Shown here one piece after another: positions 15,622 through 52,339 of a stretch of 64,000 nt of DNA (position 1 is the stretch's first letter; every line of letters begins with the position of its first letter). Made by a program: the position numbers and the translations under genes. Source of the DNA: a candidate division WOR-3 bacterium (GTDB lineage Bacteria > Hydrothermota > Hydrothermia > Hydrothermales > JAJRUZ01); the NCBI GenBank assembly GCA_024277525.1, contig JAJRUZ010000008.1:20091-84090 (forward strand), in the 5' to 3' direction. The notes beneath the pieces were generated by a model. It was not told where the DNA came from, searched no databases, and saw only the letters and a program-made list of their open reading frames with translations.

Positions 15622-18258
15622 TTATATCACCACCTCTTTCTTTCTGGGATAAAGTTTTCCATATACCTTCTCCACATCATCCACAATTATCAAAATAAGT
15701 GCCTCCTTGTTTTCCGCAAGTTGAAAAGCACAGAAAATTGCCTCTTCTTCATCATCCATTATAAAAATCCTATCCTCACTTACTCCCTTTTCTTTAAGCA
15801 CATTTTTCATCATAAGCGGAACTTCTTTCGGCTTTCTTCCCCTTAAATCCCAATCATCCCTTATCACAAAATAATGAACATCAGAATTACCGGCAATTTC
15901 TGCCATCTTTCTTATATCAATATTCCTCCTATCTCCCGGTGCTCCTATTACCGCAATCTTAAACTCATAAGGAAGTGAATTAATTAAACTGAATATCATC
16001 TCATAAGCCTTCGGATTATGAGCATAATCAAGAATAATCTTCCATTTACCGATGGAAATGAAATTGGCTCTTCCGGGATTTTCATGAAAAGAGGAATGAA
16101 ATGTCCTTAATCCCTCTGCTATGGTCTCCAGGGGAACGCCGAGAAGATAAGTAATAAGAGAAGCAGCAAGAGCATTTTCTATATTAAACATTGCCCTTCC
16201 TTCAAAAGCACTCGGAATTTCACTTATATTTATTACCGGTATCCTCAAATCCCCTTTACAAAGGCATATTGTATCTCCGTCAAGAAGCATTCCTATTCCC
16301 CCTATTTGAAGATGTTTCTCAAAAAACTCATTTCTTTTCAAGCAAAAATAAGCCGGTTTTGCTATTGTATTTTTATGAAGATTTCTTACAACCTCATCAC
16401 ATGCATTTAAAACAGCAAAACCTTCTTTTTTAACAGCCTCTATGACCACGGATTTAACTTCAGCCATTTCTTCAACCGTTTCAATACCCCTTAAACCGAG
16501 ATGGTCCTCCGAGACATTTAAAACACACCCTATATCAGCATAATCATATCCCAGCCCTTCCCTTAAAATTCCTCCTCTCGCTGTTTCAAAAACCGCAACT
16601 TCAACAGATGGGTCCTTTAAGACAACTTTTGCGCTCCACGGACCTGTTGTATCTCCTTTAACAATCCTTTCATTACCTATGTAAATTCCCTCTGTTGTTG
16701 TAAAACCTACCTTCTTACCCGAAATTCTCAATATATGGGAGACCATTCTCACTGTTGTCGTTTTTCCATTCGTTCCTGTTATTGAAACAATCGGAATTCT
16801 CGAAGGTACCCCCGGAGGAAATAACATATCCAGGACGAACACTGCAACATTTCTGCTTTTTCCTTTTGACGGATAAAGATGCATTCTGAATCCGGGAGCA
16901 GCATTTACTTCAACAACTTTCCCTTTTATTTCATGAAGGGGCTTTGTTATATCCTTACAGATAAAATCAATACCCGCTATATCAAGCCCTGTTATCCTTG
17001 CAACCCTTTCTGCAAGTCTTAAATTTGAAGGATGGGCTATATCGGTAACATCTTCCGCTTCTCCACCTGTTGAAAGATTGGCTGATGTCTTTAAATAAAG
17101 AATCTCACCTTTCGGAAGAACAGAATCAAGGGTGTAACCCTTTCTTTTTAATATTTCATGAGTAATTTCATCTATTTTAATTTTTGTTAAAGGTTTCTCA
17201 TGTCCTATTCCCCTTCTTTCATCGCTGTTAATTTTTTCAACAAGTTCCCTTATTGTGCTTTTTCCATCTCCTATTACATGAGCAGGGGTTCTTCTGGCAC
17301 ATGCAACCGCCTTTCCGTTTATTACCAGAATTCTGTAATCTTCTCCTTCAACATGTTCTTCAATAATAACTTTTTTTGAATAATTCTTAGCATATTTGAA
17401 GGCTTCTTTTAATTCATCAAAGCTTCTTATATTGGTTGTGACTCCCTTTCCCTGATTTCCATCAAGGGGTTTGCAAACAACCGGAAACCCTATCTTTTCC
17501 GCAATCTCTTTTGCGGATTCGTAATCATAAACAACGCCTCCTTCGGGTACAGGAATTCCTGAATCTTTCAAAATCTTTTTTGTTATATCCTTATCACAGG
17601 CTATTTCAACAGCAATGTTTGATGTATTGTTCGTGGTTGTAGCCCATATTCTTTTGGAATATTTTCCGTATCCGAGTTGCACAAGATTTCCATCTTCCCA
17701 TAATCTAATAACAGGAATATTTCTTCTTTTTGCTTCATCAATTATTGATTGAGTCGAAGGACCGTATGCCCACTTTTCTCTTATCTCAAGTAATTCATTT
17801 ATATATGGTTTAATATCGGGAATCCCCCCGTCTATAATTTTTTCAACAATTTCAACAGCAAATTCTCCTGCTTTTTTACCTGCTTCTTCAACCACATAAG
17901 AGTAAATGATCTTATAAACACCTTTTTTCTTTTCACTTCTCGCCTTTCCGTATCCTGTTTCCATTTTAGCAAGACATTGAAGTTCAAGTGCAACATGCTC
18001 AACAACATGCCCCATCCATGTACCTTCTTCAACTCTTTTTAAAAACCCGCCCTCAAAGTCATAAGAACATCTATGGGAATAAAGAGTAGGAATTGTCTTC
18101 TCTATTCTCTCTTTAAAACCTTTTATTTTATTTGTGGGTTTATCTTCAAGTTCTCCTATATCAAGTGTCATACATATACAGGGTTTTCTTAAATGATAAA
18201 TATTCGGACCCCTGAAAGCCCTGATTTCAAGAATTTTCATATATTTAAACTTTTTCAT
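15622..18258 (-). CDS. cphA: Cyanophycin synthetase (ATP-grasp plus Mur-ligase domains).
   Basis: 878 aa. The N-terminal CphA-specific domain reads MKILEIRAFRGPNIY. An ATP-grasp core and a C-terminal Mur-ligase P-loop (ITGTNGKTTT) follow. It is adjacent to a cyanophycinase gene. Confidence 0.85.
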   Translation of the reverse strand: MKKFKYMKILEIRAFRGPNIYHLRKPCICMTLDIGELEDKPTNKIKGFKERIEKTIPTLYSHRCSYDFEGGFLKRVEEGTWMGHVVEHVALELQCLAKMETGYGKARSEKKKGVYKIIYSYVVEEAGKKAGEFAVEIVEKIIDGGIPDIKPYINELLEIREKWAYGPSTQSIIDEAKRRNIPVIRLWEDGNLVQLGYGKYSKRIWATTTNNTSNIAVEIACDKDITKKILKDSGIPVPEGGVVYDYESAKEIAEKIGFPVVCKPLDGNQGKGVTTNIRSFDELKEAFKYAKNYSKKVIIEEHVEGEDYRILVINGKAVACARRTPAHVIGDGKSTIRELVEKINSDERRGIGHEKPLTKIKIDEITHEILKRKGYTLDSVLPKGEILYLKTSANLSTGGEAEDVTDIAHPSNLRLAERVARITGLDIAGIDFICKDITKPLHEIKGKVVEVNAAPGFRMHLYPSKGKSRNVAVFVLDMLFPPGVPSRIPIVSITGTNGKTTTVRMVSHILRISGKKVGFTTTEGIYIGNERIVKGDTTGPWSAKVVLKDPSVEVAVFETARGGILREGLGYDYADIGCVLNVSEDHLGLRGIETVEEMAEVKSVVIEAVKKEGFAVLNACDEVVRNLHKNTIAKPAYFCLKRNEFFEKHLQIGGIGMLLDGDTICLCKGDLRIPVINISEIPSAFEGRAMFNIENALAASLITYLLGVPLETIAEGLRTFHSSFHENPGRANFISIGKWKIILDYAHNPKAYEMIFSLINSLPYEFKIAVIGAPGDRRNIDIRKMAEIAGNSDVHYFVIRDDWDLRGRKPKEVPLMMKNVLKEKGVSEDRIFIMDDEEEAIFCAFQLAENKEALILIIVDDVEKVYGKLYPRKKEVVI

Positions 18259-27997: not shown

Positions 27998-28134
27998 GTT
28001 TGACAGCCATTTATTCTAAATACTGAGAGGGTGTTTGAATAAGAGAAGTTGACATAAGATTCTTTAAAATCGAGATAAAAACCTCTATCGGATTTAAAAG
28101 AAGCAGGATGGGCAAAAAGACAGCAGGGTTATTA

Positions 28135-28250
28135 TGTTTATTGAGTTTACCAGTGTCCTTGTGTTAATCGTGTTTATTGGGTTTGTCGGGTTTATTGTGT
28201 TCTTCGCGTTTGTTGGGATTAATTGCGTTCATTGAGTTTAAAAATTTATT
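28135..28250 (+). repeat. Tandem array of degenerate 9-bp units (TTTATTGGG, TTTGTCGGG, TTTATTGTG, TTCTTCGCG, TTTGTTGGG, ...), about 12 units.
   Basis: Direct reading shows a strict 9-nt period with G at unit positions 7 and 9. Confidence 0.8.
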
Positions 28251-28261
28251 TTACGCGATGA

Positions 28262-28548
28262 ATCATCGCTACAAATCAGATAGGAGGGAAAATAAATCTT
28301 TGATGATATAAACTCCAGATAATCAGAGAATCTATCATTCATTTTTATCCTGTCAAGGAAACTCTTTAAAACATACATTCCCTTTTTCAATCTTATAACC
28401 TTTCCACTTTTCTCCAGCCTTGATAAAGCAATTTTAAGATAATAATTTCTTATCCCAGTATCTCCAGATTTTTCTTTGAAAAATAGGGCAAATCTTTAAC
28501 ACAATCAATTATTTCATCCACAATACTTTTAAAATCTTCATTTCTCAT
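28262..28548 (-). pseudogene. Decayed AbiEi-like (type IV TA antitoxin, wHTH) gene remnant with multiple frame breaks.
   Basis: Hand translation gives MRNEDFKSIVDEIIDCVKDLPYFSKKNLEILG, a stop, IRNYYLKIALSRLEKSGKVIRLKKGMYVL, and further breaks. This resembles the AbiEi N-terminal domain (...L..LG.s...lsrL.kkGkl.rl.rGvY..). No intact ORF exists. Confidence 0.35.
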
Positions 28549-28600
28549 GGTATACAAATATTGTATACTATTGGAAATCAATTTTCAAGTTTCCTTTTAA

Positions 28601-28632
28601 TTGGGTTTTTTGCGTTCATTGTGCTTGTTGGG
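28601..28632 (+). repeat. Short copy of the 9-bp repeat family (TTTTTTGCG TTCATTGTG CTTGTTGGG).
   Basis: Direct reading. Confidence 0.6.
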
Positions 28633-28648
28633 TAGAAACTCCCCTTTC
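28630..28648. other. Hairpin CCCCTTT-cttta-AAAGGGG, followed by GGGGCAGGGGA.
   Basis: Perfect 7-bp stem. Confidence 0.5.
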
Positions 28649-28753
28649 TTTAAAAGGGGGCAGGGGATGTTTAAATTCTCTTGAACTAAAGTCATTTTTT
28701 ATTACACTCTAAGGGTGTAATTAGAGTTAGGGGTCTTCAGAAATTACAACAGT

Positions 28754-29222: not shown

Positions 29223-29291
29223 TCAAAATATTATATTCCTTCAAGTCAAATTTTTCAAATATATTCAAATTGCAATTTTTATACTTCTGAG

Positions 29292-29450
29292 GTGTTTATC
29301 GCGTTTTTTTGCGTTTGTCGCGTTTGTTGGGTTTATAAATATGCGGGACGAGCGGGACGGGCGGGAAAAGCGAGAGGGGTTTGTTGCGCTTTTCGGGCTT
29401 ATCGTGTTCATTGGGTTTTTCGTGTTTATTGGGTTTTTTGCGTTGATTAT
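29292..29450 (+). repeat. Composite repeat element. A left arm of 9-mers (TTTATCGCG, TTTTTTTGCG, TTTGTCGCG, TTTGTTGGG) is followed by a TTTATAAATAT core. Then come four GCGRGANNN units (GCGGGACGA, GCGGGACGG, GCGGGAAAA, GCGAGAGGG), a right arm of 7 units (GTTTGTTGCG...TTTTTTGCG) and a TTGATTAT terminus.
   Basis: Direct reading. The layout is the same as the copies at 29587, 47062 and 49372. Confidence 0.85.
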
Positions 29451-29586
29451 ATTCTGTTTAAGCTCCATTTACAGTTTATCTTCCTTTAAATAATAAAAGC
29501 TGGCATAGAGCTCTTAAAAAGATTTTGAAATCTAAATAAAGGCTTCTGTTTTTAACATAATAAAGGTCATATTCCTGTCTATATAT

Positions 29587-29664
29587 GTCTATTGCGTTTA
29601 TAAATAGGCGAGAAAAGCGAGAAAGGCGGGAAACGCGAGACGCGTCTATTGCGTTTTTCATTTG
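29587..29664 (+). repeat. Compact copy of the same element: GTCTATTGCG, TTTATAAATAG, GCGAGAAAA, GCGAGAAAG, GCGGGAAAC, GCGAGACGC, GTCTATTGCG.
   Basis: Direct reading; it abuts the 3' end of the wecA-like gene. Confidence 0.85.
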
Positions 29665-30710
29665 AGATTTTTTAACTCTTCCTGTTTCTGGTAAGGGAAT
29701 TTTTCGAATATTCTTATGAGAATTAAGCCTGTTATGATTATTAAGGCAAAAATTGTATAGGAAATCCAGAATTCCACCCTGTAAATAAATACTGAAAACA
29801 TTCCACCCAAAAATCCCAGAAAATACATTAAAAGAACCGTTGTTTTCTGGCTTAAGGAAAGATTGTATAATCTGTGATGCACATGGTCTTTTCCGGGATG
29901 TAAAAAGGGAATTAGTCCTCTTTTTGCTCTTGAAATTGTTATTAAACTTGTGTCAAATATCGGAACAATAAGTATTAAAATCGGTATCATCCATCGTGTC
30001 AAAACAGGTAAAGTTTCCGAATTTGCAACTCTTAATCCAAGGGCAGCAAGTAAAAATCCCAGAAATATTGCTCCTGAATCTCCGAGAAAGATTTTTGCAG
30101 GATGAAAATTATAAATAAGGAATCCAAGGGAGGCTCCCATGAGTGCAAGGGAAAGGGTTATAAGAATAATATCTCCTGTTTTTAATCCGAAAACAAAATA
30201 AAAGGTTGAAGCAATCACTGCAATACCTGAAGAAAGTCCATCCATTCCGTCAAGAAGGTTATATGCAGCGGTTATTCCAACAACCCAGAAAATTGTGAAT
30301 AAGTAATTTAAAATTGAAACATTAAAAATTTTTAAATGAAGGTTAAAAAATATCAAAATTAATCCTGCAATGGGCATACCCACCATCAATTTTATCTGGG
30401 GATGAATTTTCCCCATATCATCAAAAAGTCCTATCACAAGAAGCATAACAGCACATCCGAAAATAACAAAGAGTTCTTTATTGAAAGGATTATGAAAAAA
30501 CAAAGGAAAAATACCCGCAATAACACCAAAAAATACAGCAACACTGCCGAGGAGGGGAATGGGAGTTTTGTGGATTTTTCGGGGATTGTCAGGATGGTCA
30601 TAGATTTTGAAATGGATGGCAATACTTTTTACCACAGGAACAAGAATTAAACTTGTCAGAAAAGACAGAATAAGAGAAATCATATTCATATTCATATTTA
30701 TATTATTCAA
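29658..30710 (-). CDS. wecA: UDP-HexNAc:undecaprenyl-phosphate HexNAc-1-P transferase (WecA/MraY-type polyprenyl-phosphate glycosyl-1-P transferase).
   Basis: 350 aa with 10-11 TM helices and MraY/WecA loop motifs (DDMGKIHP, NLLDGMDGL). Confidence 0.7.
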   Translation of the reverse strand: MNNINMNMNMISLILSFLTSLILVPVVKSIAIHFKIYDHPDNPRKIHKTPIPLLGSVAVFFGVIAGIFPLFFHNPFNKELFVIFGCAVMLLVIGLFDDMGKIHPQIKLMVGMPIAGLILIFFNLHLKIFNVSILNYLFTIFWVVGITAAYNLLDGMDGLSSGIAVIASTFYFVFGLKTGDIILITLSLALMGASLGFLIYNFHPAKIFLGDSGAIFLGFLLAALGLRVANSETLPVLTRWMIPILILIVPIFDTSLITISRAKRGLIPFLHPGKDHVHHRLYNLSLSQKTTVLLMYFLGFLGGMFSVFIYRVEFWISYTIFALIIITGLILIRIFEKFPYQKQEELKNLK

Positions 30711-31813
30711 TTCTTGGTAAAAAGTTTAAAAATTTTTTCATATTTTGAAATTACCTTTTCCCAACTATAAACCTTTTTCACTCTTTCAATTACCTTTTTT
30801 TCTATATCTTCTAAAAACTTCCCATTTTTTTCTAAATGTTCGATTTTTGATAATAAATCTTTTTCTTTCTTTGTAAAACTAAATCCACAATTTTCTATAA
30901 CTTCAAGATTATAAGGCACCTTCAGAACTATGGGACATTTCCCAGCAGCCATTGCCTCTAATAAGGCGGGATTTGTTCCCCCTGCTTCATGACCGTGTAT
31001 ATAACAATATGCATTTCTTAGGATTACTTTATAATCTTCTCCATACACAGCTCCCAGAAATTTAATTTTATGATTTGCCATTCTTTTAAGTTTGTTTTTA
31101 TATTCAATACTATGAGGTGTGTCCCCAATAATCACGAGTTTTTTCTCACCCTTATACTTAATGAATTCTCTAACCGTAATATGAGGGTTATTTTCAGGTT
31201 CAATACGACATACCTGAAGAAAATATTCTCTCGGCTTTAAACCATATTTTTTTAAAACTTCCAGATCTTTACCACTGGAATTATTATTTATATCTGCTCC
31301 ATAGGGAATATATACAGGTTCTTTTTTATATTTTCTTTTAAAATATTTTTTTACGGCTTTTGAATCAGCGATTATTATATGACAAAAAACGCTGGCTAAA
31401 GCCTCAGAAAGTCTCAAAAAGAAAGAGGCAATTTTTGACCACTTCGGTCTCTTCCATTCTATTCCGTCAACATTTATTATTATTTTTTTACCCAGCAATC
31501 GCGGAAGCCAGCATAAAAGAACAGGAGAAACACCCAGTAAAAGGAGCACTTTATTTTTAGAAAATGATGCATGGATAACTGATAAAAATGAAGTAGAAAC
31601 CTTTTCCAGAAATTTCACATTAATTGAAGGAAGCCATATTCTTTTGACTTCAGGGAAATATTTATCTTTTTCAGGATTTCGATACTTCTTAAGACCATAC
31701 ACTGTAAACTCATATCCTTTATCTTTTAAACCCAGAACAAGTTTATTTACAAATGTTTCAAACCCTCCGTAACTTACAAGAAACCCTCTTGAACCAATAA
31801 TGGCTATCTTCAT
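30707..31813 (-). CDS. Glycosyltransferase, GT-B fold (DUF1972-type N-terminus: IAIIGSRG...YGGFETFV).
   Basis: N-terminal motif characteristic of the DUF1972/GT1-like family; a GT-B C-terminal domain. Confidence 0.6.
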   Translation of the reverse strand: MKIAIIGSRGFLVSYGGFETFVNKLVLGLKDKGYEFTVYGLKKYRNPEKDKYFPEVKRIWLPSINVKFLEKVSTSFLSVIHASFSKNKVLLLLGVSPVLLCWLPRLLGKKIIINVDGIEWKRPKWSKIASFFLRLSEALASVFCHIIIADSKAVKKYFKRKYKKEPVYIPYGADINNNSSGKDLEVLKKYGLKPREYFLQVCRIEPENNPHITVREFIKYKGEKKLVIIGDTPHSIEYKNKLKRMANHKIKFLGAVYGEDYKVILRNAYCYIHGHEAGGTNPALLEAMAAGKCPIVLKVPYNLEVIENCGFSFTKKEKDLLSKIEHLEKNGKFLEDIEKKVIERVKKVYSWEKVISKYEKIFKLFTKN

Positions 31814-32991
31814 TTATTTCTCCTCTTATGCAATTTTATTGCTTTTTCATAAATTTCCATAAGCATTTTATAATTTTTTTCAGGAGTATACTTTTCTTCA
31901 TATTCTTTTCTCGCATTCCTCGCCATCCTTTCCCTTTCCTCAGGGTGATTCCATAACCACAAAACTTTTTCAGCAAGGTCTTTAGGATTTCCGGGTTCAA
32001 AAAGTAAACCTGTTTCACCATGTTTTACAAGGTATTTAAGTGAGCCAATTCTTGAGGCTATAACTGGTGTACCACATTGAAAAGCTTCAATTAAAGTCAG
32101 AGGGAATCCCTCATACCAAATAGAGGGCATAATTAGAACTTTTGCTTTTTTAATGATTTTTAATAAATTTACTTTTGATTTAAAACCCAAATATGATACA
32201 TTATGTGGTAAATAAGTTTTTATTTCTTCTGACAACGGACCACTTCCTACAATTTTTAAAGTGATGTTATTAATAAAAGAAAAAGCTTTTAATAACACTT
32301 TAATGCCCTTTTCTTCAGATATTCTACCAGAGAATACTATATAATTATCTTTCTTAAAGGAAGGAGTTATAGAATCATCTAAAAAATTAGGTTTTACAGT
32401 AATTTTAGAAGAAGGTATCCCAAATTCTATGAATTTTTCCTTAGCAAATTTTGATAGAACAATATAATAAGAGGGCAAAGCAAAATAATTATTTAATTTA
32501 ATCTTTCGTAGCATAGCATAAACAGGCAGCGATTTTAAATAGGAATTTTGAAAACATTTATGCAATAATGAAAAGTATTCATTTTTTTGTGGGCATAATT
32601 CACATACATGACCTTTTCTAAATAGAAAAGCACTGGAACAGAACAATCTGAAATCATGTAAAGTATGAACAAAAGGAACTTTTTTTTCTTTTAAAGCCTT
32701 ATAGATAGAGATAGAAAAAAATGGAAATAGATTATGAATATGAACTATATCAAATTTTTCTTTTTCAAGCAATTTTTTCAATTCTTGGTAGCTGTTTCTT
32801 GACCACGGAATATTTAACGCGAATCTAATTTTTTGTTTTAAATTCATATTCTCAATAAGGTCATTTTCTTTGTAAAACAGCTTTACATAATGTCCTTTGC
32901 TTGAAAGTAACCTCACTTCATTTTTCACCACAGTATCATCACCGCTTGGAGCACCTCTCCTGTGAAAGTTATGTATTACAAGAATTTTCAT
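31810..32991 (-). CDS. Glycosyltransferase family 4.
   Basis: GT-B C-terminus (EGFPLTLIEAFQCGTPVIAS). Confidence 0.7.
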   Translation of the reverse strand: MKILVIHNFHRRGAPSGDDTVVKNEVRLLSSKGHYVKLFYKENDLIENMNLKQKIRFALNIPWSRNSYQELKKLLEKEKFDIVHIHNLFPFFSISIYKALKEKKVPFVHTLHDFRLFCSSAFLFRKGHVCELCPQKNEYFSLLHKCFQNSYLKSLPVYAMLRKIKLNNYFALPSYYIVLSKFAKEKFIEFGIPSSKITVKPNFLDDSITPSFKKDNYIVFSGRISEEKGIKVLLKAFSFINNITLKIVGSGPLSEEIKTYLPHNVSYLGFKSKVNLLKIIKKAKVLIMPSIWYEGFPLTLIEAFQCGTPVIASRIGSLKYLVKHGETGLLFEPGNPKDLAEKVLWLWNHPEERERMARNARKEYEEKYTPEKNYKMLMEIYEKAIKLHKRRNK

Positions 32992-34088
32992 TTATCAATC
33001 AAAGTCTTTAAAAATCTCAATAAGGAAAGTTTAGAAATTCTACTTTTTTCATCTCTTTCTCTTCTATTCCAAAGGCTATCATCTAATAAAAGTTCCATTA
33101 AATATAATTTTAAGATGAATAAAATAATTTCATCAGAAATATTAAGACGGACCATTCCTAGGTAAATATTTATAAAGAAATAAAATTTCTTTAACTTACC
33201 CAAAAGGGTCTCAGGAGATACTTTATTAAAGAGACTCACATAAGTAAAAATTATATAAGCAAAAATATCCCATAAGGGCAATCCTTCTAACCTCGCATCT
33301 TCCCAATCAAATAAGAAGAGTTTAGATGTTTTTAAGTTTCTCACGAAATTCCAGGGTTTAAAATCATAATGCACAATCCCTAAAGGGATTAATATATTTT
33401 TATTTTCTTCCATTTCTTTTAAAAGTTTCTCTCTTTCCTTTTCATTCAAAAATTTTACTTTCTGAAGATTCTTTTCTATTTTCTTATATAAATAAGATTC
33501 ACCTAATTCCTTCATATCTGTCTTACTCAGAAAAAGCTCGGCTGAAATTTTCACAATTTCTTCATTAAGCTCATAATTTCTGAGTAATGAATACTTCTCA
33601 GGAGAAGTAAGAAAGATAAAGAAAAGTTTGTTGTTATATTCTCCATACTTTATCACTTCCGGAACCTCAAAGGAATTAAAATTCATTTTTTTTAATAAAT
33701 TTAAAATTTTTATTTCGGACTTAAGCAATTCACTCCCCTTTTTATCAAACGAAATTTTCATAAAACCAAAAACCTTATTATGGTTAATTATTTGAACTAC
33801 AGCTTTTTTTTCCGAAGGAAAATAAAGATTTATGTCATAAGAATTGTTTTTTATTTCTTTTTTAATAATTTCATCAATTAAAAAAACTTTCTCCTGTATT
33901 TCTTTTCTTAGATTAGATTTCAGATATCTTAACAGAGGCATAGAAATATAAAGGAACATTTTCTTTACTTTACTTTTCCAAGTAAAATCTCCATATAGTT
34001 TTAATCCCATTTTAAAAACATTAAAATTGCTAATGCTAAATAAATAGCAGGGATACGAATTGGAAGGCAAAGCAATTCTTTTTTTCAT
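32988..34088 (-). CDS. Protein-kinase-fold phosphotransferase (APH/choline-kinase-like).
   Basis: Catalytic-loop HYDFKPWN (HxDxxxxN) and metal-binding DWEDA. Confidence 0.5.
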   Translation of the reverse strand: MKKRIALPSNSYPCYLFSISNFNVFKMGLKLYGDFTWKSKVKKMFLYISMPLLRYLKSNLRKEIQEKVFLIDEIIKKEIKNNSYDINLYFPSEKKAVVQIINHNKVFGFMKISFDKKGSELLKSEIKILNLLKKMNFNSFEVPEVIKYGEYNNKLFFIFLTSPEKYSLLRNYELNEEIVKISAELFLSKTDMKELGESYLYKKIEKNLQKVKFLNEKEREKLLKEMEENKNILIPLGIVHYDFKPWNFVRNLKTSKLFLFDWEDARLEGLPLWDIFAYIIFTYVSLFNKVSPETLLGKLKKFYFFINIYLGMVRLNISDEIILFILKLYLMELLLDDSLWNRRERDEKSRISKLSLLRFLKTLIDK

Positions 34089-35317
34089 ATTAATCCAAGT
34101 TTTACATATATTTCTTTAATTTGTTTTCCTTTTACATCCCAGGTGTAATATTTTTTTATCCTCTCTATAGCACCCTTACTCAATTTCATCCTGAGGTTTT
34201 CATTCTCTACAAGACTTAAAATTGCTTTAGCAAGGTTCTTAACAGTATCTTCATAAGAAGTTATATCAACTTTAATACCACAGGTTTCATCTACCATTTC
34301 TCCTGGCCCTCCATAATTCAAGCATATCACAGGTAATCCACAACTCATGGCTTCCAAAATTACCATTCCTGCTCCTTCAAAACTGGGATACAAAAAAATA
34401 TGTGAAGAAGAATAAATTGACCAAAGAGACCTTCTATCCATCCATTTCAAAATGGTAACTTTTTCTTTTAATTTATTTTTTTCGATATATCTCAGAATAT
34501 TATTCTTTTCTTTCCCTTCTCCTACCAAAATAAATCTTAAATTTTTATCGCTCTCTTTTAAAGCAAGTCTGAATGCATCTAAAGCAACAAATATTCCTTT
34601 CCATTTTAAAAATCTTCCCACAAAAAGAAGTTTAATATTTTCTGAATCTCTTCTACTCTTATAGTCTATAGATTCTACAGCAATTGCAGGTATTATTTCA
34701 ATATATTTTTTTTTCACATATATTTTTCTGTAGCTCTCCTTATTAATAACTATAACCGCATCCGCTAATTTTTTAGTTATAATAAAAAAAGGATTTAAAC
34801 GAGAAAAATCACGAAATTTTATTTTTATTTTTTCAATGACCTTATCTAAATAATTCAGTAAGAATCGAGAAGGAACTTCTGGATGACTTCCAATAGGTCC
34901 CCATATAAATCTCAAATGTTTATATTTAAGTTTAAGAAGAGAGAGGTAACAAGGTGTATAGTCATTTACAAAAGTTACGTGATGTATTGCGGTTATATTT
35001 TCCAGATTTATTATTTTGGGTATTTTAAAAAGAGCATAGATCTGCCACAGGTGATAGTATAATCTTACCCCTTTTTGTTTTTTCTTCCAAAATCTTATAT
35101 ATTGGGGAAGATCTATATAAATAAAATTTATTCTTTTATTTGGGTAATTTTTTAAATAACTCTCAATTACAGTTCTGTTATTATCTCTTGTTATAACCCA
35201 AATTTCAGCAAATTCAGACATTTTCTTTGTCCAATTCCATCCCACCCCCGGTTCTGAGCCTTTGTTAGGTTCACAAGCATAAGCTACAACTAAAATTTTA
35301 TTTTTTTTGATTTTCAT
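34085..35317 (-). CDS. Glycosyltransferase family 4.
   Basis: GT-B with the C-terminal EGAGMVILEAMSCGLPVIC motif. Confidence 0.7.
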   Translation of the reverse strand: MKIKKNKILVVAYACEPNKGSEPGVGWNWTKKMSEFAEIWVITRDNNRTVIESYLKNYPNKRINFIYIDLPQYIRFWKKKQKGVRLYYHLWQIYALFKIPKIINLENITAIHHVTFVNDYTPCYLSLLKLKYKHLRFIWGPIGSHPEVPSRFLLNYLDKVIEKIKIKFRDFSRLNPFFIITKKLADAVIVINKESYRKIYVKKKYIEIIPAIAVESIDYKSRRDSENIKLLFVGRFLKWKGIFVALDAFRLALKESDKNLRFILVGEGKEKNNILRYIEKNKLKEKVTILKWMDRRSLWSIYSSSHIFLYPSFEGAGMVILEAMSCGLPVICLNYGGPGEMVDETCGIKVDITSYEDTVKNLAKAILSLVENENLRMKLSKGAIERIKKYYTWDVKGKQIKEIYVKLGLI

Positions 35318-36485
35318 TTATATAAAGTATTGAAAACACTAACGCTAATATAAACCAAAATATTCTCATTGTGAATAAACTCAACGTCACACCTCCAAGG
35401 AGAAGATTATAATAAGCTAATCTCACAGAATCCAAATTTTTTTTCTCTCTGGTAACAAGTTCCTTTAAAGGATAAAAGAAAAAAAATAATATTGCAAAAC
35501 CAAGAGGTAATCCCATAAAAGTTATAACCTCTAAATATAAATTATGCGGGATATAAAGCCCTTTTACTCAAATTTCTTCTCCACCTATCCCTATTCCTAA
35601 AGGGAACTGAAAAATTAATGTAAGATAGTATCTCCACAATATTGCTCGTGAATCCGCAAATATTTGTGCCTTTGATAATCGTTCCAAAATTAAATTAATT
35701 TGTTCTTTTGTAAAAGGAATGAACATTAATATCAAAATACCAGATAATAAAAACAGATTAATTAAAAAATATATATTTTTTTTTCTTAATTTCATTTTAA
35801 CATTAAAAAAAGACCTTGCACCAAAATAAATTATACTAAAAAATAAAATAATCAACCCTGTCCTGGAATATGTAAAAATAATAATCCCCGTGGTGAATGA
35901 TAACAGTATCAATCTCAAAATAAAAGACAATTCTTCAATATACAAAACCATAGAAAAAATTAATACCATATATAGAGCCAAATAGTTAGGATCAGAAAAA
36001 GATAAAATCAGTCTTTTTTTCCAGGGATTCCATTCGAATATTTCTAACTTAAAAAGAAAAGGTATAGCTAAAGTAGAGAAAAAACTATAAAGAAACCATT
36101 TTTGTATCTTGATAGGTGTAAGCATTCTCATTTTAACTAAAAATAAAATTTCAAAAAAAAGAAGCAATGAAATAAAAAATCTACCTGAATGAACCATAAG
36201 GCGGAAAAAAGAGTTGATATTGGAATAGAAATTCGAATGCATTAATAAAAGAAACATATTATAAATTACAAGAAAAGTAAAAAAAATAATAATTTTAAAT
36301 ATAATACCCCCAACGGGTATATACTTATACTTTTTATAATACACTAAAATAAAAACAAATATCAAGAAAAAAAGAGAAACAATGAAAACATCGCTAATTT
36401 TAAATATTAAAATATTAAATTCATCTCTTCTAAGGGGTAAAGTTAAAATAATAAAAAAAAGAGCAAAATTAATAATCTTTTTCAT
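35298..36485 (-). pseudogene. wzy: O-antigen polymerase/ligase-family (Wzy-like) membrane protein interrupted by a single in-frame TGA at 35568-35570.
   Basis: ORFs 35568..36485 and 35298..35516 are in the same frame, with 17 sense codons between them. Multiple TM helices; the IGIGGEE region is typical of Wzy_C. Confidence 0.5.
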
Positions 36486-37843
36486 GTAATTTTCTTTTTA
36501 ATATAGTGTAACAAAAAATTAAGTATTTTTTGTCTGGATTCACAGACAGAGTTCTTAAAAGTAGGCACTATTTTAAGTCCTTTTTCTTTATACAAATAAA
36601 TTTTATATAAATTTTGTAGTAAAACAATTCTATTTAGGGACAATTCTGGTTTTCTACTTATTATTATACTACTATCGCAATCTAAATAAAATGAAATGTC
36701 AGGTTTAGGAATGAATAGCAAATAAATATAATAAAGAAATTTTCTGGGAAGAGATATACGTACTCTTTCTCTATCAATTACTATATCTAAATAGTATCTA
36801 TCAAATACTACTAAACTTTCCCTTGAAAGAAGTGGTCGTATTTTAAAAATATACCCGATAGTGTATTCTAAAATATAATACAAAACCTTTATTAAACTCA
36901 TCACTTTACTATAAGGTTCTACCACATATGGATTACCACTATCTACAATTCTACTTTTGGGTAAAAAGAAATCTATTAAAAAAGTTAAAGCATCTGGTTT
37001 AAAATGGAAAACCTTTATATCTGAAAAATAAAAAAGTTTATTAGTTTTTATAAGTTCACTTATTAAAGTACTCTTACCCGAGCCATCTGGTCCATAAAGC
37101 GCTATAAAAATACCGTCTTTTTTTAGATAAAAAAACAACATCTGTAGATAATACATCACAAAATTAATAGCAAAAACAATTGGCTCTTCTAGTATTCTTT
37201 TCAAAAAAACAGAAAATATAATTTTTTTCCTTACCTTGTATAATCTTTCCAGCGTTGCTTTTTCTGTAGTTAGTTTGGGATTTAAAAATATTGCAATAAT
37301 AGTATTACTTAAATTTAAAGTAAATAATTTTGCAAGAGATTTTTTCAAAATGCTTTTATAAGGACTTTTCAATATAGAATTAAGTTTTCTTCCATATTTA
37401 TTTAATATTCTCTTCCCTTTACCCTTTATAAGTTCTTTTATAATTATAATAAGAAACTCGAGATCAGGAGGAGCTACACATACTCCATCTTTATTCACAA
37501 TTGCTTTAGTTAAATATTTTTCTGATTCAAAAAATTTTATTCCTTTAAAATCTAATGAATATATAAAATCAAATTTTAAAAAAACAAAACTATCATTCTT
37601 ATTTACAAAAAAGCCTACTCTTCTAACACCCGGGAGACTTTTGTACCTTATTAATTCCACTTTTCCGACTCTTTTAAGGGTTTTTATCAAAATCTCAATT
37701 GCTTTGTTTATATAAGCTCTTTTTATCAATAAATCAATATCTTTAGATTCTTCTAACTGTAAATACTCTTTGGTAACAATATAAGGTATTCCTTTATTTC
37801 TTAAAGTTACTAAACATTTTTTTATCAGGCAAAATTTATTCAT
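36482..37843 (-). CDS. Hypothetical two-domain protein with a C-terminal P-loop (ALYGPDGSGKST), kinase-like.
   Basis: Walker A motif; embedded in the glycan cluster. Confidence 0.35.
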   Translation of the reverse strand: MNKFCLIKKCLVTLRNKGIPYIVTKEYLQLEESKDIDLLIKRAYINKAIEILIKTLKRVGKVELIRYKSLPGVRRVGFFVNKNDSFVFLKFDFIYSLDFKGIKFFESEKYLTKAIVNKDGVCVAPPDLEFLIIIIKELIKGKGKRILNKYGRKLNSILKSPYKSILKKSLAKLFTLNLSNTIIAIFLNPKLTTEKATLERLYKVRKKIIFSVFLKRILEEPIVFAINFVMYYLQMLFFYLKKDGIFIALYGPDGSGKSTLISELIKTNKLFYFSDIKVFHFKPDALTFLIDFFLPKSRIVDSGNPYVVEPYSKVMSLIKVLYYILEYTIGYIFKIRPLLSRESLVVFDRYYLDIVIDRERVRISLPRKFLYYIYLLFIPKPDISFYLDCDSSIIISRKPELSLNRIVLLQNLYKIYLYKEKGLKIVPTFKNSVCESRQKILNFLLHYIKKKIT

Positions 37844-37853
37844 AAGGTTTAAA

Positions 37854-38981
37854 TCAAATTAAATCTTGCCCTATTTTCTCATATTCTTTATTCATTTTTT
37901 CGGCGATTTTATTCCATAAAAAATTCTTTTCTGCTAATCTCCAAGCAGCATCTCTCATTTTCAACCATTCCTTAAAATTAAGGGTCAATATTTGTCTTAA
38001 AGTATCCCTTAATGAATGTACATCTGTGGTAGTAACAAAACCTGCGTTATGATGCTGTATAACTCTCTTTGGGTCCAAGAAATCGGATACAATTACAGGG
38101 ATTCCAAAAGAAAGCGCCTCAAGGACACTTAAAGGAAGACCCTCAAATCTAGATGTATAAATAAAAAAGAAACTTCTTTTAAGAAATTCAATTTTTTCTG
38201 AACCATACATTTCTCCCATGATAAATATTTTTTCTTTTAAATTTAGATTATTAATCAAACATTTAATTATTTTTTCGTCATTTTTAGTAAAAAATGGACC
38301 AATAAGATATAAAGATATTAAAGGAACTTCCGCCATAGCTTTGATAAGTATGTCTAATCCCTTGTTAAATACATCTAATCTCCCTATAAAAGTTAAAATT
38401 TTAGATTCAAATATTTTCTTTTGCATCAGAATAGGTGAATTTTCAAAATAAATTGATTCTACTCCGTTAGGAATTATTGTTACTTTACTTTTTTTAATCC
38501 CAAATTTACAAATGTCAATAGCTTCTGCTAATGAAAGCGCACGTATTTTTATGGCTCTTTGGGTATAAAATTTGACAATAGGAATAACAATTTTCTTTTT
38601 ATATTTACTTTGTGCCAAAGCCTTAGCCCGAAGGGAACCATGTGGTGATATTAAATATTTGATTTTATATCTGTTTAATTTTAAAGCCAAAATCAAATTA
38701 TAAATGCTAAATATGCCATGAAGATGAAATATTACATTATTTTTAGTCTTTTTTAACTCCGAATCTATATTTTTTTTGAAATTTAAAATATGTGACGGGA
38801 ATATTTTACATTTTATACCCGTATCCAGTGTATATTCTCCGGGATTTTTACGCGAGGAAATACACCATACTTCTACATCAGAATATTGTAACTCATGTTT
38901 ACTTAGATAATAGACAGACTTCACCACTCCATTAGAACTTTCAGGTTTCGGCCTCCCAACGAGAAAATGTATAATTTTCAT
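37854..38981 (-). CDS. Glycosyltransferase family 4.
   Basis: GT-B C-terminus (FEGLPLSVLEALSFGIPVIVSD). Confidence 0.7.
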   Translation of the reverse strand: MKIIHFLVGRPKPESSNGVVKSVYYLSKHELQYSDVEVWCISSRKNPGEYTLDTGIKCKIFPSHILNFKKNIDSELKKTKNNVIFHLHGIFSIYNLILALKLNRYKIKYLISPHGSLRAKALAQSKYKKKIVIPIVKFYTQRAIKIRALSLAEAIDICKFGIKKSKVTIIPNGVESIYFENSPILMQKKIFESKILTFIGRLDVFNKGLDILIKAMAEVPLISLYLIGPFFTKNDEKIIKCLINNLNLKEKIFIMGEMYGSEKIEFLKRSFFFIYTSRFEGLPLSVLEALSFGIPVIVSDFLDPKRVIQHHNAGFVTTTDVHSLRDTLRQILTLNFKEWLKMRDAAWRLAEKNFLWNKIAEKMNKEYEKIGQDLI

Positions 38982-39979
38982 GCCTTTTTCTTAAATTTTT
39001 CCTTAATCTTAATACCAAAAAAAATCAAACGATACAAAAAAGTCAAAATATTTATTTTCCAATCACTATAATTTTTATAATTTCGTAAATAATATTTTCT
39101 ACTTTTTATAAAATATTTATATAAATTTTTTGAGGGTGGGGTATGTAGATGTAAAACCTCTACGGTAGGCAAGAAAATTATTCTTTTTCTTTTTCTCTTT
39201 ATCATTGATGAAATAATTGCTTCTTCACCATATAAAAACACATTTTCATCTAACAAACCAATTTCTTTAAAAAATCTTGTATCAAAAAACATACAACATC
39301 CTGCTATTCTTTCTACCTCTACTGGATTGTTCTTATCTGTTTTGATAACAAAATTAATCTTTTTAAAAGGAGATATTAAAAGTCTAATAATTTCTTCCCC
39401 AAAATTTGGCTGTCTCAAAGGGGATTGGTCTTTACCGTATTTATCAATCACTCTAGGTCCAATACAATAAGCCTCATCAAAAATTTCTTTCGTTTTAAAC
39501 ATTTCATAAATTAAATTTTTAGAAACGATTATCACATCAGGATTGAGTAATAATACACCTTGAGCATTAATAAGTACTGCATATCTTATTCCCACATTGT
39601 TCCCTCCAGAAAAACCCAAATTTTTACTTGTTTGAATTATAACCAATCTTCTATTAGAAGGATATTTTTTTAGAACCTTCTCAAGTTTACTTATACCCCC
39701 TTTCTCTGCAGTTTCTTTATCATATTCTACATAAAAAACTGGTTTTAAGTCTTTTCTGTATTCAACATATTCAGAATCAACTTTAATTTTCCCTTCAGCC
39801 CATTCTTTAATTTTTTCTACTGACTCATTGTTTGAACCATTGTCAACTACAATCATTTGGTAATTAGGATAATCAATTTGCTGAATTGACTCCAAACATC
39901 TAATACTATCTTGCCATTTTTTGTAATTTAGAACTATTATTGCAATTTTTGGATAATTATTCATTTCACATATAACCAA
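38978..39979 (-). CDS. Glycosyltransferase family 2.
   Basis: GT-A N-terminus (IAIIVLNYKKWQDSIRCLESI...MIVVDNGS). Confidence 0.75.
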   Translation of the reverse strand: MVICEMNNYPKIAIIVLNYKKWQDSIRCLESIQQIDYPNYQMIVVDNGSNNESVEKIKEWAEGKIKVDSEYVEYRKDLKPVFYVEYDKETAEKGGISKLEKVLKKYPSNRRLVIIQTSKNLGFSGGNNVGIRYAVLINAQGVLLLNPDVIIVSKNLIYEMFKTKEIFDEAYCIGPRVIDKYGKDQSPLRQPNFGEEIIRLLISPFKKINFVIKTDKNNPVEVERIAGCCMFFDTRFFKEIGLLDENVFLYGEEAIISSMIKRKRKRIIFLPTVEVLHLHTPPSKNLYKYFIKSRKYYLRNYKNYSDWKINILTFLYRLIFFGIKIKEKFKKKA

Positions 39980-41576
39980 GCCCTTCTAACTGTCTTTTTA
40001 TTTTTTCATCTTCTGATAAAGATAACTCTGAATCTTTTTTATACTCAACAATATTTCCCTTTCTAAAACTTATAGGATGAGATTTTAAATAATTTTCTAT
40101 AAATATTTCCTTTAAAACTCTGCCTTCAATATTCGATGGTATAGGAACATCCAAGGTATAAAGTACAGTAGGTAAAATATCCATAAGTTTCACTTCTTTA
40201 AGTTTATTCCTCTTGATTTTCTTACCCTTTGCAATAAAAATACCTTCCAGTCTATGACAACCTGTGTGTCTATCTGAATAAGGTGTATTCTCGTATACTC
40301 TGCCTTCAAATTGATTTTTAGGTAAGACACATCCCCAGTCATTTATACTTATTAAAATATCTGGTATATCTGAACTATCAGAAAAAGATTTAAAAATTTC
40401 TAATTTAAAATTTTGCTCTTTAGCAATTACTCTGAGGTCTCTTATAATAGAATTAATCATTCCCTCTCTGTTAATACCAGAATTTTCCAAATATTTTTTG
40501 TTAAGGTATATTCCACCAAAAGGAATTGTGTGCCCTGGGTCAAATGCAATTGTATTTTGCCAATCAATCTCATCCAAAATACGAGGTTTAAATGAATTTA
40601 CTGTTTTTTTACCCCATTTATAAACCTTTGGAAAATATTTGTAGAATTTTAATTTATTTGAAATTTGGGTTAAAAAATAAAGAAAAGTTTCTTTTATAAT
40701 TTTGATATTACAGTATTTTTTCTTTCTTTTTAAATAACGTTGTTGTTCTAGCCAGTAATTAAGTCTAAAAACAGAAGTATTTGGACCAAATCCGTGATCA
40801 GAAATAATAAAAAATTCCCCTCCTTCATCAACTATATCATCAAGAAATCCTATAATTTCGTCTATTTTTGCCCAAAATTTCTTAATTTTAGAATTATACT
40901 TATTAGTTTTTCTTTCATTAGTTGTATCAATATATTTCCACATACGATGTTGAAACCAATCAGTTTCAGAAAGTACTATAAATGCTATTCTCCATTTCTT
41001 ATTCATAAGAAGATATTTAATAATTTTATACTTATTCTCTAAAGTTTTAAAGAGATCATTTAAAAATAAAGTCACATCATCGTATTTAGGATGATGGTAA
41101 TTTACTATAAAATCAAACCCATTGCTTACTATTCTTAATATTTCTTTTTTTAAATACGAAGGAAAAGTGAACTCATCTTTTATTGTAGCAGGAAAACCTG
41201 AGATTATAATACCATCAATCTCATAAGGAGGATAAAGAAAAGGATAATTCACAATAATTGGACGCATACCATATTCTTCAACATAATCCCATAAAGATCT
41301 ATTTTTAAAGAAAGAAGAATCAATAGGTTTCATCTTGTTATTCTTTTCATCAAAATACATAAAATCAAAGATACGGAGAGAAAAGGGAGATAATCCAGTA
41401 GCAATAGACAACCAAGCAGGTGCAGTTACAGGAGGAATAACACTTTTTAAAATTCCCAAAGCACCCTTTCCCATTATCCTTTTTAAATTGGGCATTACTC
41501 CTTCTTTAATTAAAGGAGAAATTACATCAAAAGTTGCTCCATCTAAACCTAGAACAATTATTTTATTTGTTTTCAT
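39966..41576 (-). CDS. Alkaline-phosphatase-superfamily protein (type I phosphodiesterase / nucleotide pyrophosphatase family).
   Basis: N-terminal LGLDGATFD...PAWLSIATG metal-site motif. Confidence 0.55.
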   Translation of the reverse strand: MKTNKIIVLGLDGATFDVISPLIKEGVMPNLKRIMGKGALGILKSVIPPVTAPAWLSIATGLSPFSLRIFDFMYFDEKNNKMKPIDSSFFKNRSLWDYVEEYGMRPIIVNYPFLYPPYEIDGIIISGFPATIKDEFTFPSYLKKEILRIVSNGFDFIVNYHHPKYDDVTLFLNDLFKTLENKYKIIKYLLMNKKWRIAFIVLSETDWFQHRMWKYIDTTNERKTNKYNSKIKKFWAKIDEIIGFLDDIVDEGGEFFIISDHGFGPNTSVFRLNYWLEQQRYLKRKKKYCNIKIIKETFLYFLTQISNKLKFYKYFPKVYKWGKKTVNSFKPRILDEIDWQNTIAFDPGHTIPFGGIYLNKKYLENSGINREGMINSIIRDLRVIAKEQNFKLEIFKSFSDSSDIPDILISINDWGCVLPKNQFEGRVYENTPYSDRHTGCHRLEGIFIAKGKKIKRNKLKEVKLMDILPTVLYTLDVPIPSNIEGRVLKEIFIENYLKSHPISFRKGNIVEYKKDSELSLSEDEKIKRQLEGLGYM

Positions 41577-43075: not shown

Positions 43076-43077
43076 TT

Positions 43078-44316: not shown

Positions 44317-44318
44317 TT

Positions 44319-45564: not shown

Positions 45565-45747
45565 TTGATTTTATTTTAAAATTCTTCTTCTTTTTGTCAC
45601 TATTACAAGATAAAGTTCACCGTTTCTGGTGTCATTATATTTTTATAAATGTTCCGAAGGCTGCAAGGGAAATGAGATTTTTTCCATAGGTTGAAACAAC
45701 CTTCTTTTTTATTTGATTGAGTATGTTAGTTTTTTTCTTGGTTTTTA
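45565..45747 (-). pseudogene. Frameshifted paralog of the MNT-like mini-protein encoded at 49497..49793.
   Basis: Hand translation gives MKNLKTKKKTNILNQIKKKVVSTYGKNLISLAAFGTFIKI, a stop, then NDTRNGELYLVIVTKRRR in another frame. Compare IKKKIVSIYGDDLVSLVAFGPSIRTNFEEKEVYLVIVTK in the intact copy. Confidence 0.4.
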
Positions 45748-45998
45748 AGTTTTTCATGGGTTTTAATTAATTTGTTTTGATCTTATTATTAAATATAAAA
45801 TTTCCCATTTCGCATTCCGAATTCCGAATTTTCCTTTTCACCATTTTATCAATCCCCCTTTATCCCCCTTTTCTAAGCTGAGATCACCCATGATTTTTCC
45901 TAATAAATCACTGTATTACTTGTATAAAATTAAAAATGAAGTTATAATTCAGTCTTTAAAAAGATATTGTTAAATTGTCACATAAATGCGACCGCTAC

Positions 45999-47033: not shown

Positions 47034-47061
47034 CTATCCATTATAATGGAAAGTCATAAAA

Positions 47062-47180: not shown

Positions 47181-47221
47181 ACATATACGATGGGTTGTAT
47201 GAATGCATTTTGTTTCTTTAA

Positions 47222-47757: not shown

Positions 47758-47773
47758 TCAATCCCCCTTAATC

Positions 47774-52338: not shown

Positions 52339-52339
52339 T

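Follow-up and report, generated by a model that had tools for sequence, protein, structure and literature searches.

The 64-kb stretch of DNA analyzed in this work (the window; all positions are in whole-stretch numbering) is chromosomal; Pfam scans of its open reading frames (ORFs) identified ribosomal proteins, ClpXP, trigger factor, SmpB and ThiC, the last having its best named relatives in candidate division WOR-3 and Candidatus Hydrothermales. Every gene from approximately 28.2 to 52.3 kb lies on the minus strand. This region contains a polysaccharide operon (Table 1) surrounded by small cassettes, namely a DUF4258/DUF2283 pair, a helix-turn-helix (HTH)-MNT/HEPN pair, a HicAB pair with a frameshifted hicA, a split AAA_14/DUF4143 ATPase and several gene remnants. 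Here we describe a family of arrays of 9-nt units located in the spacers around these cassettes, one block of which (29331-29377, within the array that we call copy A) had been singled out from the sequence as a candidate promoter followed by operators or by the 5' end of a small RNA (the original prediction). At least 11 arrays are present in the window, in both orientations and in two clusters (28.1-29.7 kb and 45.8-49.5 kb). All of them are intergenic and confined to the spacers around the small, mostly toxin-antitoxin, cassettes that flank the polysaccharide operon, and they are absent from the other intergenic regions of the window.

The block at 29331-29377, described as a core followed by four GCGRGANNN 9-mers, was confirmed at the sequence level. 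TTTATAAATAT lies at 29332-29342, preceded by a G at 29331, and is followed without gaps by GCGGGACGA GCGGGACGG GCGGGAAAA GCGAGAGGG (29343-29378). The pattern GCGRGANNNGCGRGA (GCGRGA-N3-GCGRGA) occurs nine times in the window and was not found in any of 100 dinucleotide-preserving shuffles, so the block is non-random; GCGRGA alone occurs 40 times against 16.5 expected, the surplus sitting mainly in the array spacers. The variant copies that had been announced were also located (29596-29643 and 47077-47106, and in reverse orientation 46000-46057 and 49377-49432), together with an additional one at 49219-49248. Beyond what had been described, the 9-nt register of copy A extends over eight further units downstream (29379-29450) and four upstream (29294-29330), so that the whole array measures about 160 nt and the flagged 9-mers are its middle block. 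The upstream units are NNNAYAAAC in reverse complement, and one of them measures 10 nt. As for the other arrays, copy B is 78% identical to copy A; copy C lies directly upstream of the MNT-HEPN promoter, which is on the other strand; the array at 46000-46057 begins immediately after the HEPN stop codon; and that at 47666-47744 is inverted relative to copy C, with hicAB between them.

About 20 arrays from 7 sources were available for comparison. The loci referred to below by number are an unclassified bacterium represented by a GTDB genome with 45% GC (L002), a JGI metagenome contig with 40% GC (L018), metagenome loci with MNT-HEPN orthologues (L154-L157) or with a DUF4258/DUF2283 orthologue (L219), and the WOR-3 relatives L027 and L033. 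Read on the A/C-rich strand, every copy follows the grammar [NNNAYAAAC]n-[NNNTCYCGC]n-NNNTTTATAAAC-[NNNAYAAAC]n, where NNNTTTATAAAC is a junction, J1, which is 12 nt long across all copies. A second junction, J2, reads GCGAGA-YGKGTGGTAAK-GCGAGA on the G/A strand and precedes G/A runs at six places. The periodicity is strict: in 16 pooled arrays the self-match was 0.59, 0.52 and 0.46 at lags of 9, 18 and 27 nt, compared with about 0.30 at other lags, the steps between unit ends were of exactly 9 nt in 105 of about 130 cases, and Tandem Repeats Finder (TRF) returned periods of 9, 18 and 27. Blind cutting into 9-nt pieces gave 99 A/C units with the consensus GCAATAAAC, in which C9 (98/99), A4 (94/99), A8 (94/99) and A7 (91/99) are nearly fixed while positions 1 and 5 vary almost at will; an A stands before C9, and G is common at position 1 (48/99). 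The information content of the TCYCGC units is 1.3-2.0 bits at the six positions of the core, as against 0.4-0.8 bits at the three of the spacer. Mean unit identity was 6.6/9 between adjacent units, 5.9/9 between arrays and 5.85/9 between sources; such low values indicate that the units are not recent copies of each other and that the core has been kept while the remainder diverged.

The 47 nt that were flagged represent one block of a non-coding, strand-asymmetric array of 9-nt units, read on its G/A strand. The core of the original prediction is J1, a regular A/C-type unit after the last TCYCGC unit, and not a -10 box: TTTATAAAC fits NNNAYAAAC, which explains the core as an ordinary array unit. 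Beside the arrays we found recurring modules, which are the end motif ATTGATTAT, a hairpin resembling repetitive extragenic palindromes (REP) that consists of a GTAG head plus a palindrome, and AATCCCCCTT repeats with a CCCCTT/AAGGGG hairpin, along with hairpins of the form CCCCCTT/AAGGGGG. The arrays are part of a modular, previously undescribed family of interspersed repeats which fills the spacers between independently promoted cassettes of a WOR-3/Hydrothermales-like genome.

Table 1 Arrays, promoters, accessory repeat modules and flanking genes of the window
Feature	Position	Strand	Remarks
Array of G/T 9-mers only (periods 9/18/27)	28118-28240	+	Convergent gap after thiC
Promoter, sigma-70-like	28588-28560	-	Adjoins the 28592-28636 array
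Short G/T array	28592-28636	+	Flanked by CCCCTTT/AAAGGGG hairpin and minus-strand promoter
Promoter TTGAAA-17-TATAAT (11/12) of the DUF4258/DUF2283 pair	29230-29258	-	72 nt from copy A J1; conserved in L219
Copy A, upstream block: four G/T units GTTTATCGC GTTTTTTTGC GTTTGTCGC GTTTGTTGG	29294-29330	+	
Copy A, junction J1 GTTTATAAATAT (reverse complement ATATTTATAAAC)	29331-29342	+	"Core" of the original prediction
Copy A, flagged block: four GCGRGANNN units	29343-29378	+	TCYCGC type on the other strand
Copy A, downstream block: eight G/T 9-mers in register	29379-29450	+	Ends in GTTGATTAT
Copy B: GTCTATTGC, J1 GTTTATAAATAG, four GCGRGA units, two G/T units	29587-29661	+	
GT4 gene	29658-30710	-	Its stop abuts copy B
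Polysaccharide operon	29658-45383	-	16 kb, low GC
REP-like module, minus-strand GTAGCGGTCGCATTTATG	45981-45998	-	Adjoins array; related: 49355-49376, 28253-28272
Reverse copy, J2 type: minus-strand GCGAGA-TGTGTGGTAAG-GCGCGA-CGG-GCAAGA-AAA-GCGAGA-AAAG-ATTGATTAT	46000-46057	-	
Promoter TTGATT-18-TATAAT of MNT-HEPN	47040-47069	-	7 nt from copy C J1; kept in four orthologous loci
Copy C: J1 GTTTATAAATAT, GCGAGGCGG GCGAGACGA, then eight G/T units	47077-47178	+	
J2-like 15-mer (47666-47697) plus five A/C units on the + strand (47697-47744)	47666-47744	-	
Separate repeat module: AATCCCCCTT x2 + hairpin CCCCTT-CGCCA-AAGGGG + T7	47760-47801	+	"Terminator" of the original prediction
J2 block + GCGAGA units, minus-strand GCGAGACGGGTGGTAAT GCGAGAAAG GCGAGAAAG	47838-47893	-	
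Promoter TTGAAA-17-TAAAAT of the AAA_14 ATPase gene	49179-49207	-	11 nt from copy D J1
Copy D: J1 GTTTATAAAAAG + two GCGAGA units	49219-49248	+	
J2 block + GCGAGA-type units	49263-49318	-	85% identity to 47838-47890
Reverse copy (+ strand reading): ATAATCAAT, four TCYCGC-type units, J1-like ATACTTGTAAC, three ACGATAAAC units	49377-49458	-	
Wzc- and Wza-like genes	49861-52969	-	

The original prediction regarded the core as a perfect extended -10 element (TTTATAAAT) that fires rightward into GCGRGA operators or into the 5' end of a small RNA terminated by the CCCCTT/AAGGGG hairpin. In favor of this model, the core is A/T-rich and palindromic (TTTATAAA), every J1 copy has GCGRGA units that begin 3-4 nt beyond the core, a hairpin follows the copy at 49220, and the existence of a plus-strand intrinsic terminator (47774-47790) without a plus-strand gene makes some antisense transcription conceivable. 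However, (i) TATAAA lacks T6 and ATAAAT lacks A2, there is neither a -35 nor a TG (the sequence upstream of the core is GCGTTT/TGCGTT, with no TG at -15/-14), and a promoter scan called no core, A/T richness being the one sigma-70 feature present; (ii) the core, besides being accounted for as the regular unit described above, has changed to TTTACAAA or CTTATAAA, or is missing altogether, at orthologous sites whose neighbouring real promoter stays invariant; (iii) several copies were supposed to be followed within 100-200 nt by the hairpin with its T-tract, but only the pair 49220->49333 (113 nt) fits, and it lacks the T-tract, while the hairpin with T7 (47774-47790) lies 696 nt from the nearest same-strand core (47078) with the antisense hicAB in between, and downstream of the copies at 29332 and 29597 no CCCCTT/AAGGGG hairpin was found; and (iv) the RNA-fold comparison revealed no consistent structure (z from -2.65 to +1.44). 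With distances of 113 nt, 696 nt or none, a promoter-to-terminator unit is not conserved, an outcome that the original prediction itself had named as refuting. Furthermore, no Rfam family matched at the gathering threshold, and the sole match at E<=1 lies outside the element cores. We consider this model very improbable.

The promoters that we do predict have a different position. Each of the cassettes adjoining the arrays has its own sigma-70-like promoter, on the gene strand and between the array and the gene, with scores of 10-11/12. The distance from the end of J1 to the predicted -35 is 7 nt in copy C, 11 nt in copy D and 2 nt in L157, and in L219 a second J1 stops 7 nt short of a TTGCAA-18-TATAAT match at 943-972. 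The same locus shows twice the order terminator-like hairpin, REP-like module, array and promoter, which the window matches at 28560-28668. A perfect palindrome, CCATTATAATGG (47038-47049), covers the -10 of the MNT-HEPN promoter and is conserved in the four orthologous loci; it is likely an operator for the HTH domain of the MNT protein. Regarding the accessory modules, further copies of the AATCCCCCTT/hairpin module are found at 49319-49349 and 45852-45871, and the unit formed by a GTAG head and a palindrome adjoins arrays, always outside the flagged 9-mers, in the window (45981-45998, 49355-49376 and 28253-28272) and also in L154 and L219. In L027, REP-like elements of this build (e.g. GTAGCCGCACCCTTCAGGGTGCGC) and a second palindrome, TAGGCGCAGGCTTTAGCCTGCG, recur around the AAA_14/DUF4143 cassette; they were located at 14955-14985, 17740-17770, 17845-17870 and 18050-18075 of L027, and at approximately 3905-3925 of L033, the versions beside the window arrays being weaker.

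Orthologous cassettes from related metagenomes carry arrays that differ in unit number. The MNT-HEPN orthologues of L154-L157, with 72-89% protein identity, have A/C arrays up to an invariant TTGATT-17/18-TATAAT promoter, on contigs of 1.1-1.7 kb that end within the arrays. The TCYCGC-J1 block is present in the window and in L157 and absent in L154 and L155, being missing from 2/4 orthologous sites, and the core varies as well (CTTATAAAC in L154, TTTACAAAC in L157 and GTTACAAGTAT at 49422-49432 of the window). The DUF4258/DUF2283 orthologue of L219 (86% identity) has the copy A element at the equivalent place, with two TCYCGC units versus the four of copy A and with fewer A/C units; the alignment of both contains an 18-nt gap in the TCYCGC block and another gap of 39 nt near the promoter, which is not a multiple of 9.

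The same architecture recurs in two other uncultured lineages. Our scan of the GTDB species genomes yielded a single true relative of the element, which in L002 has thrS and a tRNA gene as neighbours, and the scan of JGI metagenomes likewise yielded one, the contig L018, where arrays following the grammar given above stand on either side of a hicBA pair. In L002, two direct G-rich and apparently structured copies of about 300 nt (590-1010; ..GTGAGGGGCGCAAGAACCCGTATTGGAGGTTGAGCGGGCA..), without an Rfam match at the gathering threshold, stand between the element and the tRNA gene. In relatives with 85-88% identical ThiC the genes that follow thiC keep a conserved order and arrays are absent from this neighbourhood, and in one of these relatives an AAA_14 ATPase cassette is flanked by classical REP-like palindromes instead of arrays. 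MNT-HEPN homologues with 44-46% identity, from genomes with 37% GC, are likewise devoid of arrays. Collections of viruses, plasmids and phages contained nothing related, the viral scans giving only giant-virus or phage coding repeats.

One explanation of the variation just described is selfish or neutral repeat DNA with no host function, either as a by-product of replication slippage, unequal exchange and gene conversion or as repeats lying subterminally in a non-autonomous mobile element or in a system of cassette exchange. Orthologous sites differ in unit number and in the blocks present, with at least one indel being a multiple of 9; higher-order periods of 18 and 27 nt exist; short metagenome contigs terminate within arrays, as expected of multi-copy repeats; close relatives, by ThiC identity, lack arrays near thiC, one of them having REP-like palindromes at its ATPase cassette; the distribution is patchy over lineages of 32%, 40% and 45% GC; the neighbours of the cassettes vary among relatives; and the L002 element adjoins a tRNA gene. 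On the other hand, pure slippage cannot yield a C9 conserved in 98/99 units at a between-source identity of 5.85/9, and the conserved core is left unexplained unless a mobilising protein reads it. Pfam scans of the major ORFs of the window revealed no recombinase, transposase or REP-associated tyrosine transposase (RAYT), and no rho or hfq gene either; neither terminal inverted repeats nor target-site duplications could be defined, and the viral, plasmid and phage collections hold nothing similar. All in all, we regard selfish DNA as a serious but rather unlikely explanation.

A second group of observations concerns the transcript. The A/C strand is the sense strand in approximately 10/13 independent arrays, and A/C strands are nearly structure-free (-4.9 kcal/mol for 121 nt and -5.2 for 91 nt; overall -4.9 to -17, with z >= -1.5), while G-rich strands adopt differing folds (z -2.65 to +0.6). 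According to an RNA-level explanation, the unstructured, A/C-rich and G-poor 3' end of the upstream cassette's transcript would act as a platform or insulator by loading a ring-type factor (Rho, or an Hfq-like protein on AAYAAA), which would stop read-through before the next promoter. Copies A and C are the two largest sense-strand C>G bubbles between 27.9 and 52.5 kb in 78-nt windows (areas of 3145 at 29240-29510 and of 2945 at 47014-47282, respectively, with copy B in seventh place), and both exhibit the Rho utilization (rut) feature of a C>G bubble of at least 78 nt on an untranslated transcript. In Escherichia coli, all tested templates with a bubble >78 bp or an area >700 gave Rho-dependent termination, and AAC/ACA content was discriminating for it (PMC6144790). 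The low structure and the sense-strand bias would agree with such a platform, as would the lack of a predicted sense-strand intrinsic terminator behind the 16-kb operon, whose end lies at copy B. However, Rho does not depend on a strict register or on a conserved core, and its proposed (YC)N9-13 spacing corresponds to a period of 11-15 nt, while the 9-nt period leaves 7-nt linkers. Besides, C9 follows A and not a pyrimidine, with a G at position 1 in 48/99 units; several arrays are oppositely oriented; and the terminator-like hairpin upstream of the array in L219 and at 28560-28668 means that the array may stay untranscribed. We think that an RNA platform is improbable.

Known RNA motifs were considered as well. 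A G·U-paired hairpin with the core in its loop is predicted for copy A at -44.6 kcal/mol, but its z is no lower than -1.5, and the upstream arm does not exist in copies B and C. The GCGGGA variant of copy A forms a canonical G-quadruplex motif on the plus strand (GGG-N6-GGG-N2-GGG-N1-GGG, 29345-29365), which is found in this copy only, the remaining ones having GCGAGA. By inspection, sites for the trp RNA-binding attenuation protein (TRAP) do not fit, with one GAG per 9 nt being too wide a spacing, nor do those for CsrA, with GGA in copy A only, while the A-R-N pattern of Hfq fits 2/3 triplets only. At J2, TTTACCACA resembles a DnaA box (TTWTNCACA), but the conserved T4 is mismatched and there is no origin context, hence we judged the resemblance coincidental.

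A third possibility, that the arrays encode small repetitive peptides (the minus-strand ORFs 29265-29468 and 47041-47208, or the hydrophobic plus-strand ORF 47069-47221), is extremely improbable. ORFs of 50-124 aa run through the repeats on both strands, those of the minus strand in copies A and C share the frame (..SR..RIFIN..), and gene callers called array ORFs on L154, L155 and L219. Notwithstanding, at most 2/3 frames can be open in such units, which makes frame sharing weak evidence, and the plus-strand frames of copies A and C disagree. Moreover, in TCYCGC/CGC the would-be third codon positions are invariant while a whole NNN "codon" is free, which is the opposite of a coding constraint; the L219 orthologue ends at J1 where the window ORF continues; and ribosome-binding sites are weak or absent. 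Public gene calls cover arrays at L154 3-233, L155 1-99, L156 1-72 and L219 3-200, all of them stop-free A/C-rich repeats; these are very probably spurious ORFs.

The explanation that we tentatively prefer, although we consider it somewhat less likely than not, is that the arrays may be phased double-stranded DNA sites for a putative sequence-specific protein, which would make them either a boundary or upstream element of the cassettes or the places where a cassette mover acts. The arrays are contiguous and have a fixed spacing and a conserved core, as phased binding sites do. The persistence of a 6-nt core beside a free 3-nt spacer, in units that differ elsewhere, argues for sequence-specific recognition every 9 bp, and since both orientations are tolerated and the arrays sit between terminator and -35, recognition at the DNA level fits better than at the RNA level. 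Accommodating these features, each unit would be made up of a 6-bp recognition core and a 3-bp free spacer, along which the protein might line up as ribbon-helix-helix repressors and centromere-binding proteins do on repeats of 7-8 bp. Located behind a cassette's terminator hairpin and ahead of the -35 of the following cassette, an array could set or insulate cassette expression or, alternatively, could serve a protein that moves cassettes, and arrays would lengthen and shorten by whole units. To this extent the other suggestion of the original prediction, that evenly spaced direct hexamers may be protein-binding sites for an operator-binding protein, a transposase or a regulator, is still viable.

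Several points weigh against phased protein-binding sites. First, a cognate binding protein is neither known nor predicted, and no co-occurring candidate gene emerged from the few loci available, in a sample of about 20 arrays. Second, a spacing of 9 bp turns successive sites by approximately -51 degrees, which is unusual for response regulators and operators; arrays with a spacing of 7-8 bp are known for MetJ, omega and ParG. Third, the existence of two cores, AYAAAC and TCYCGC, requires two proteins or one of loose specificity. In addition, copy B and the array at 28118-28240 adjoin the 3' ends of genes and lack a convincing promoter in their vicinity, orthologous sites can do without the TCYCGC-plus-J1 block, and the bias of the A/C strand towards the sense strand hints at a constraint that is RNA-level or linked to the cassettes.

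Comparison with known systems places the arrays close to several of them. The organisation is closest to the bacterial interspersed mosaic elements (BIME) and REP sequences of enterobacteria, which are likewise intergenic, between co-directional genes or at 3' ends, and in which the number and order of modules vary by copy and strain; a REP-like hairpin with GTAG plus palindrome is one of the modules, next to the 9-mers though not part of them (45981-45998 and 49355-49376; L027, L033, L154 and L219). In contrast, its bulk is formed by tandem degenerate 9-nt units without a dyad and not by palindromic units of 35-40 nt, there is no sequence similarity, and the window has no RAYT transposase. 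As tandem short repeats, the arrays most resemble the short tandemly repeated repetitive (STRR) heptamers of cyanobacteria and the TAACTGA repeats of Beggiatoaceae, which are short tandem direct intergenic repeats (PMC4679880). They share with both the short head-to-tail intergenic units and a patchy distribution over distant lineages that suggests horizontal transfer, and the genomes bearing arrays also have heptamer runs. However, the units are of 9 nt, degenerate (about 65% identical) and with a conserved core instead of near-identical heptamers; two unit types succeed each other in a set order, joined by junction units; and the arrays are upstream of promoters, while STRR and TAACTGA repeats stand a few nt before start codons.

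In geometry, the nearest likeness is with the operators and centromeres of ribbon-helix-helix proteins, such as the 8-bp metboxes of MetJ, the 7-bp heptads of omega and the 8-bp boxes of ParG. These are contiguous, have a conserved core and a fixed short spacing, occur as direct and inverted repeats near promoters and are common around plasmid and toxin-antitoxin genes. The window arrays differ from them by their 9-bp spacing, by reaching at least 16 units and by being common to unrelated cassettes. Integron attC arrays also separate small cassettes, many of them toxin-antitoxin, by a repeated element, with an order that varies among relatives. Notwithstanding, the arrays have no imperfect dyad symmetry or single-strand fold (z >= -1.5) like that of attC, Pfam found no integrase among the window ORFs, and each cassette has its own promoter. 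With rut sites they have in common that the sense RNA would be long, C>G-skewed, G-poor and unstructured and that the arrays come after stop codons, but a strict 9-nt register with a conserved core is not a rut feature and the YC spacing is mismatched. The family belongs to none of BIME/REP, STRR/TAACTGA or ribbon-helix-helix operators, from which it differs in unit length, two-unit grammar, junctions and sequence, and we found no report of 9-bp intergenic repeats near toxin-antitoxin genes, or in WOR-3, in the literature.

Interspersed repeats are understood less than any other part of bacterial genomes, and for uncultured phyla, WOR-3 among them, knowledge of such repeats is almost nil. The grammar of this family is unusually regular, with two unit types, a strict 9-nt register and junction units, its placement between terminator and promoter is consistent, and it is shared by unrelated lineages. 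If it is true that a protein reads the arrays, this would represent a new way to organise or move toxin-antitoxin islands; if no protein does so, the family still marks cassette boundaries and explains assembly breaks and spurious gene calls at these places. It is tempting to speculate, as a long shot, that the arrays might be the cis sites of an undescribed nucleoprotein system, in which a small protein would polymerise along the 9-bp-phased AYAAAC/TCYCGC sites, marking, silencing, partitioning or mobilising toxin-antitoxin and other accessory cassettes, and would move with its sites between distant thermophilic lineages.

Some further observations were made in the course of this analysis. 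Among the cassettes of the window several are decayed: 47230-47426 (hicA, frameshifted), 47869-49153 (the AAA_14/DUF4143 ATPase, split into two ORFs), 45635-45757 (an MNT-like remnant resembling 49497-49793) and 28270-28581 (a fragmented small gene at 28.3-28.6 kb). Near thiC, WOR-3 relatives share a conserved TRAP-like gene of 110 aa (PF02081, trp RNA-binding attenuation protein), located at L024 12510-12842, L027 12091-12423, L031 5802-6134 and L033 5977-6309. It is missing from the syntenic spot of the window, where the island of cassettes and polysaccharide genes replaces the post-thiC gene order. The contigs L017 and L023 (6.6 kb; SDBU01021581.1 and SDBT01044630.1), and also L011 and L020, have at least 90 nt that are identical and inverted at both ends; these ends start with AAGTCGTTTTTATAAAGTCGCGAGCGGAGCGAGA, followed by GCGAGC-rich repeats, and the contigs look like a small linear element with terminal inverted repeats, unrelated to the family of the window.

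Finally, the window contains about 8 copies of heptamer repeats (CCCCAAC/CCCTAAC/CCCTAAT...) at 43197-43256, which resemble the cyanobacterial STRR1 (CCCCAAT). They are in frame in the C-terminal part of an RmlB-like dehydratase (43078-44316, minus strand), to which they add a GWGLGVGDSELGVRGWGLE-like stretch. Heptamer runs also occur beside the 9-mer arrays in the window (45814-45830, ATTCCGA x2), in L002 (450-480, AATTTTG-type x4) and in L018 (216-243, CCTTGAA-type x4), and their presence in all three lineages indicates that these genomes carry several families of short tandem repeats.

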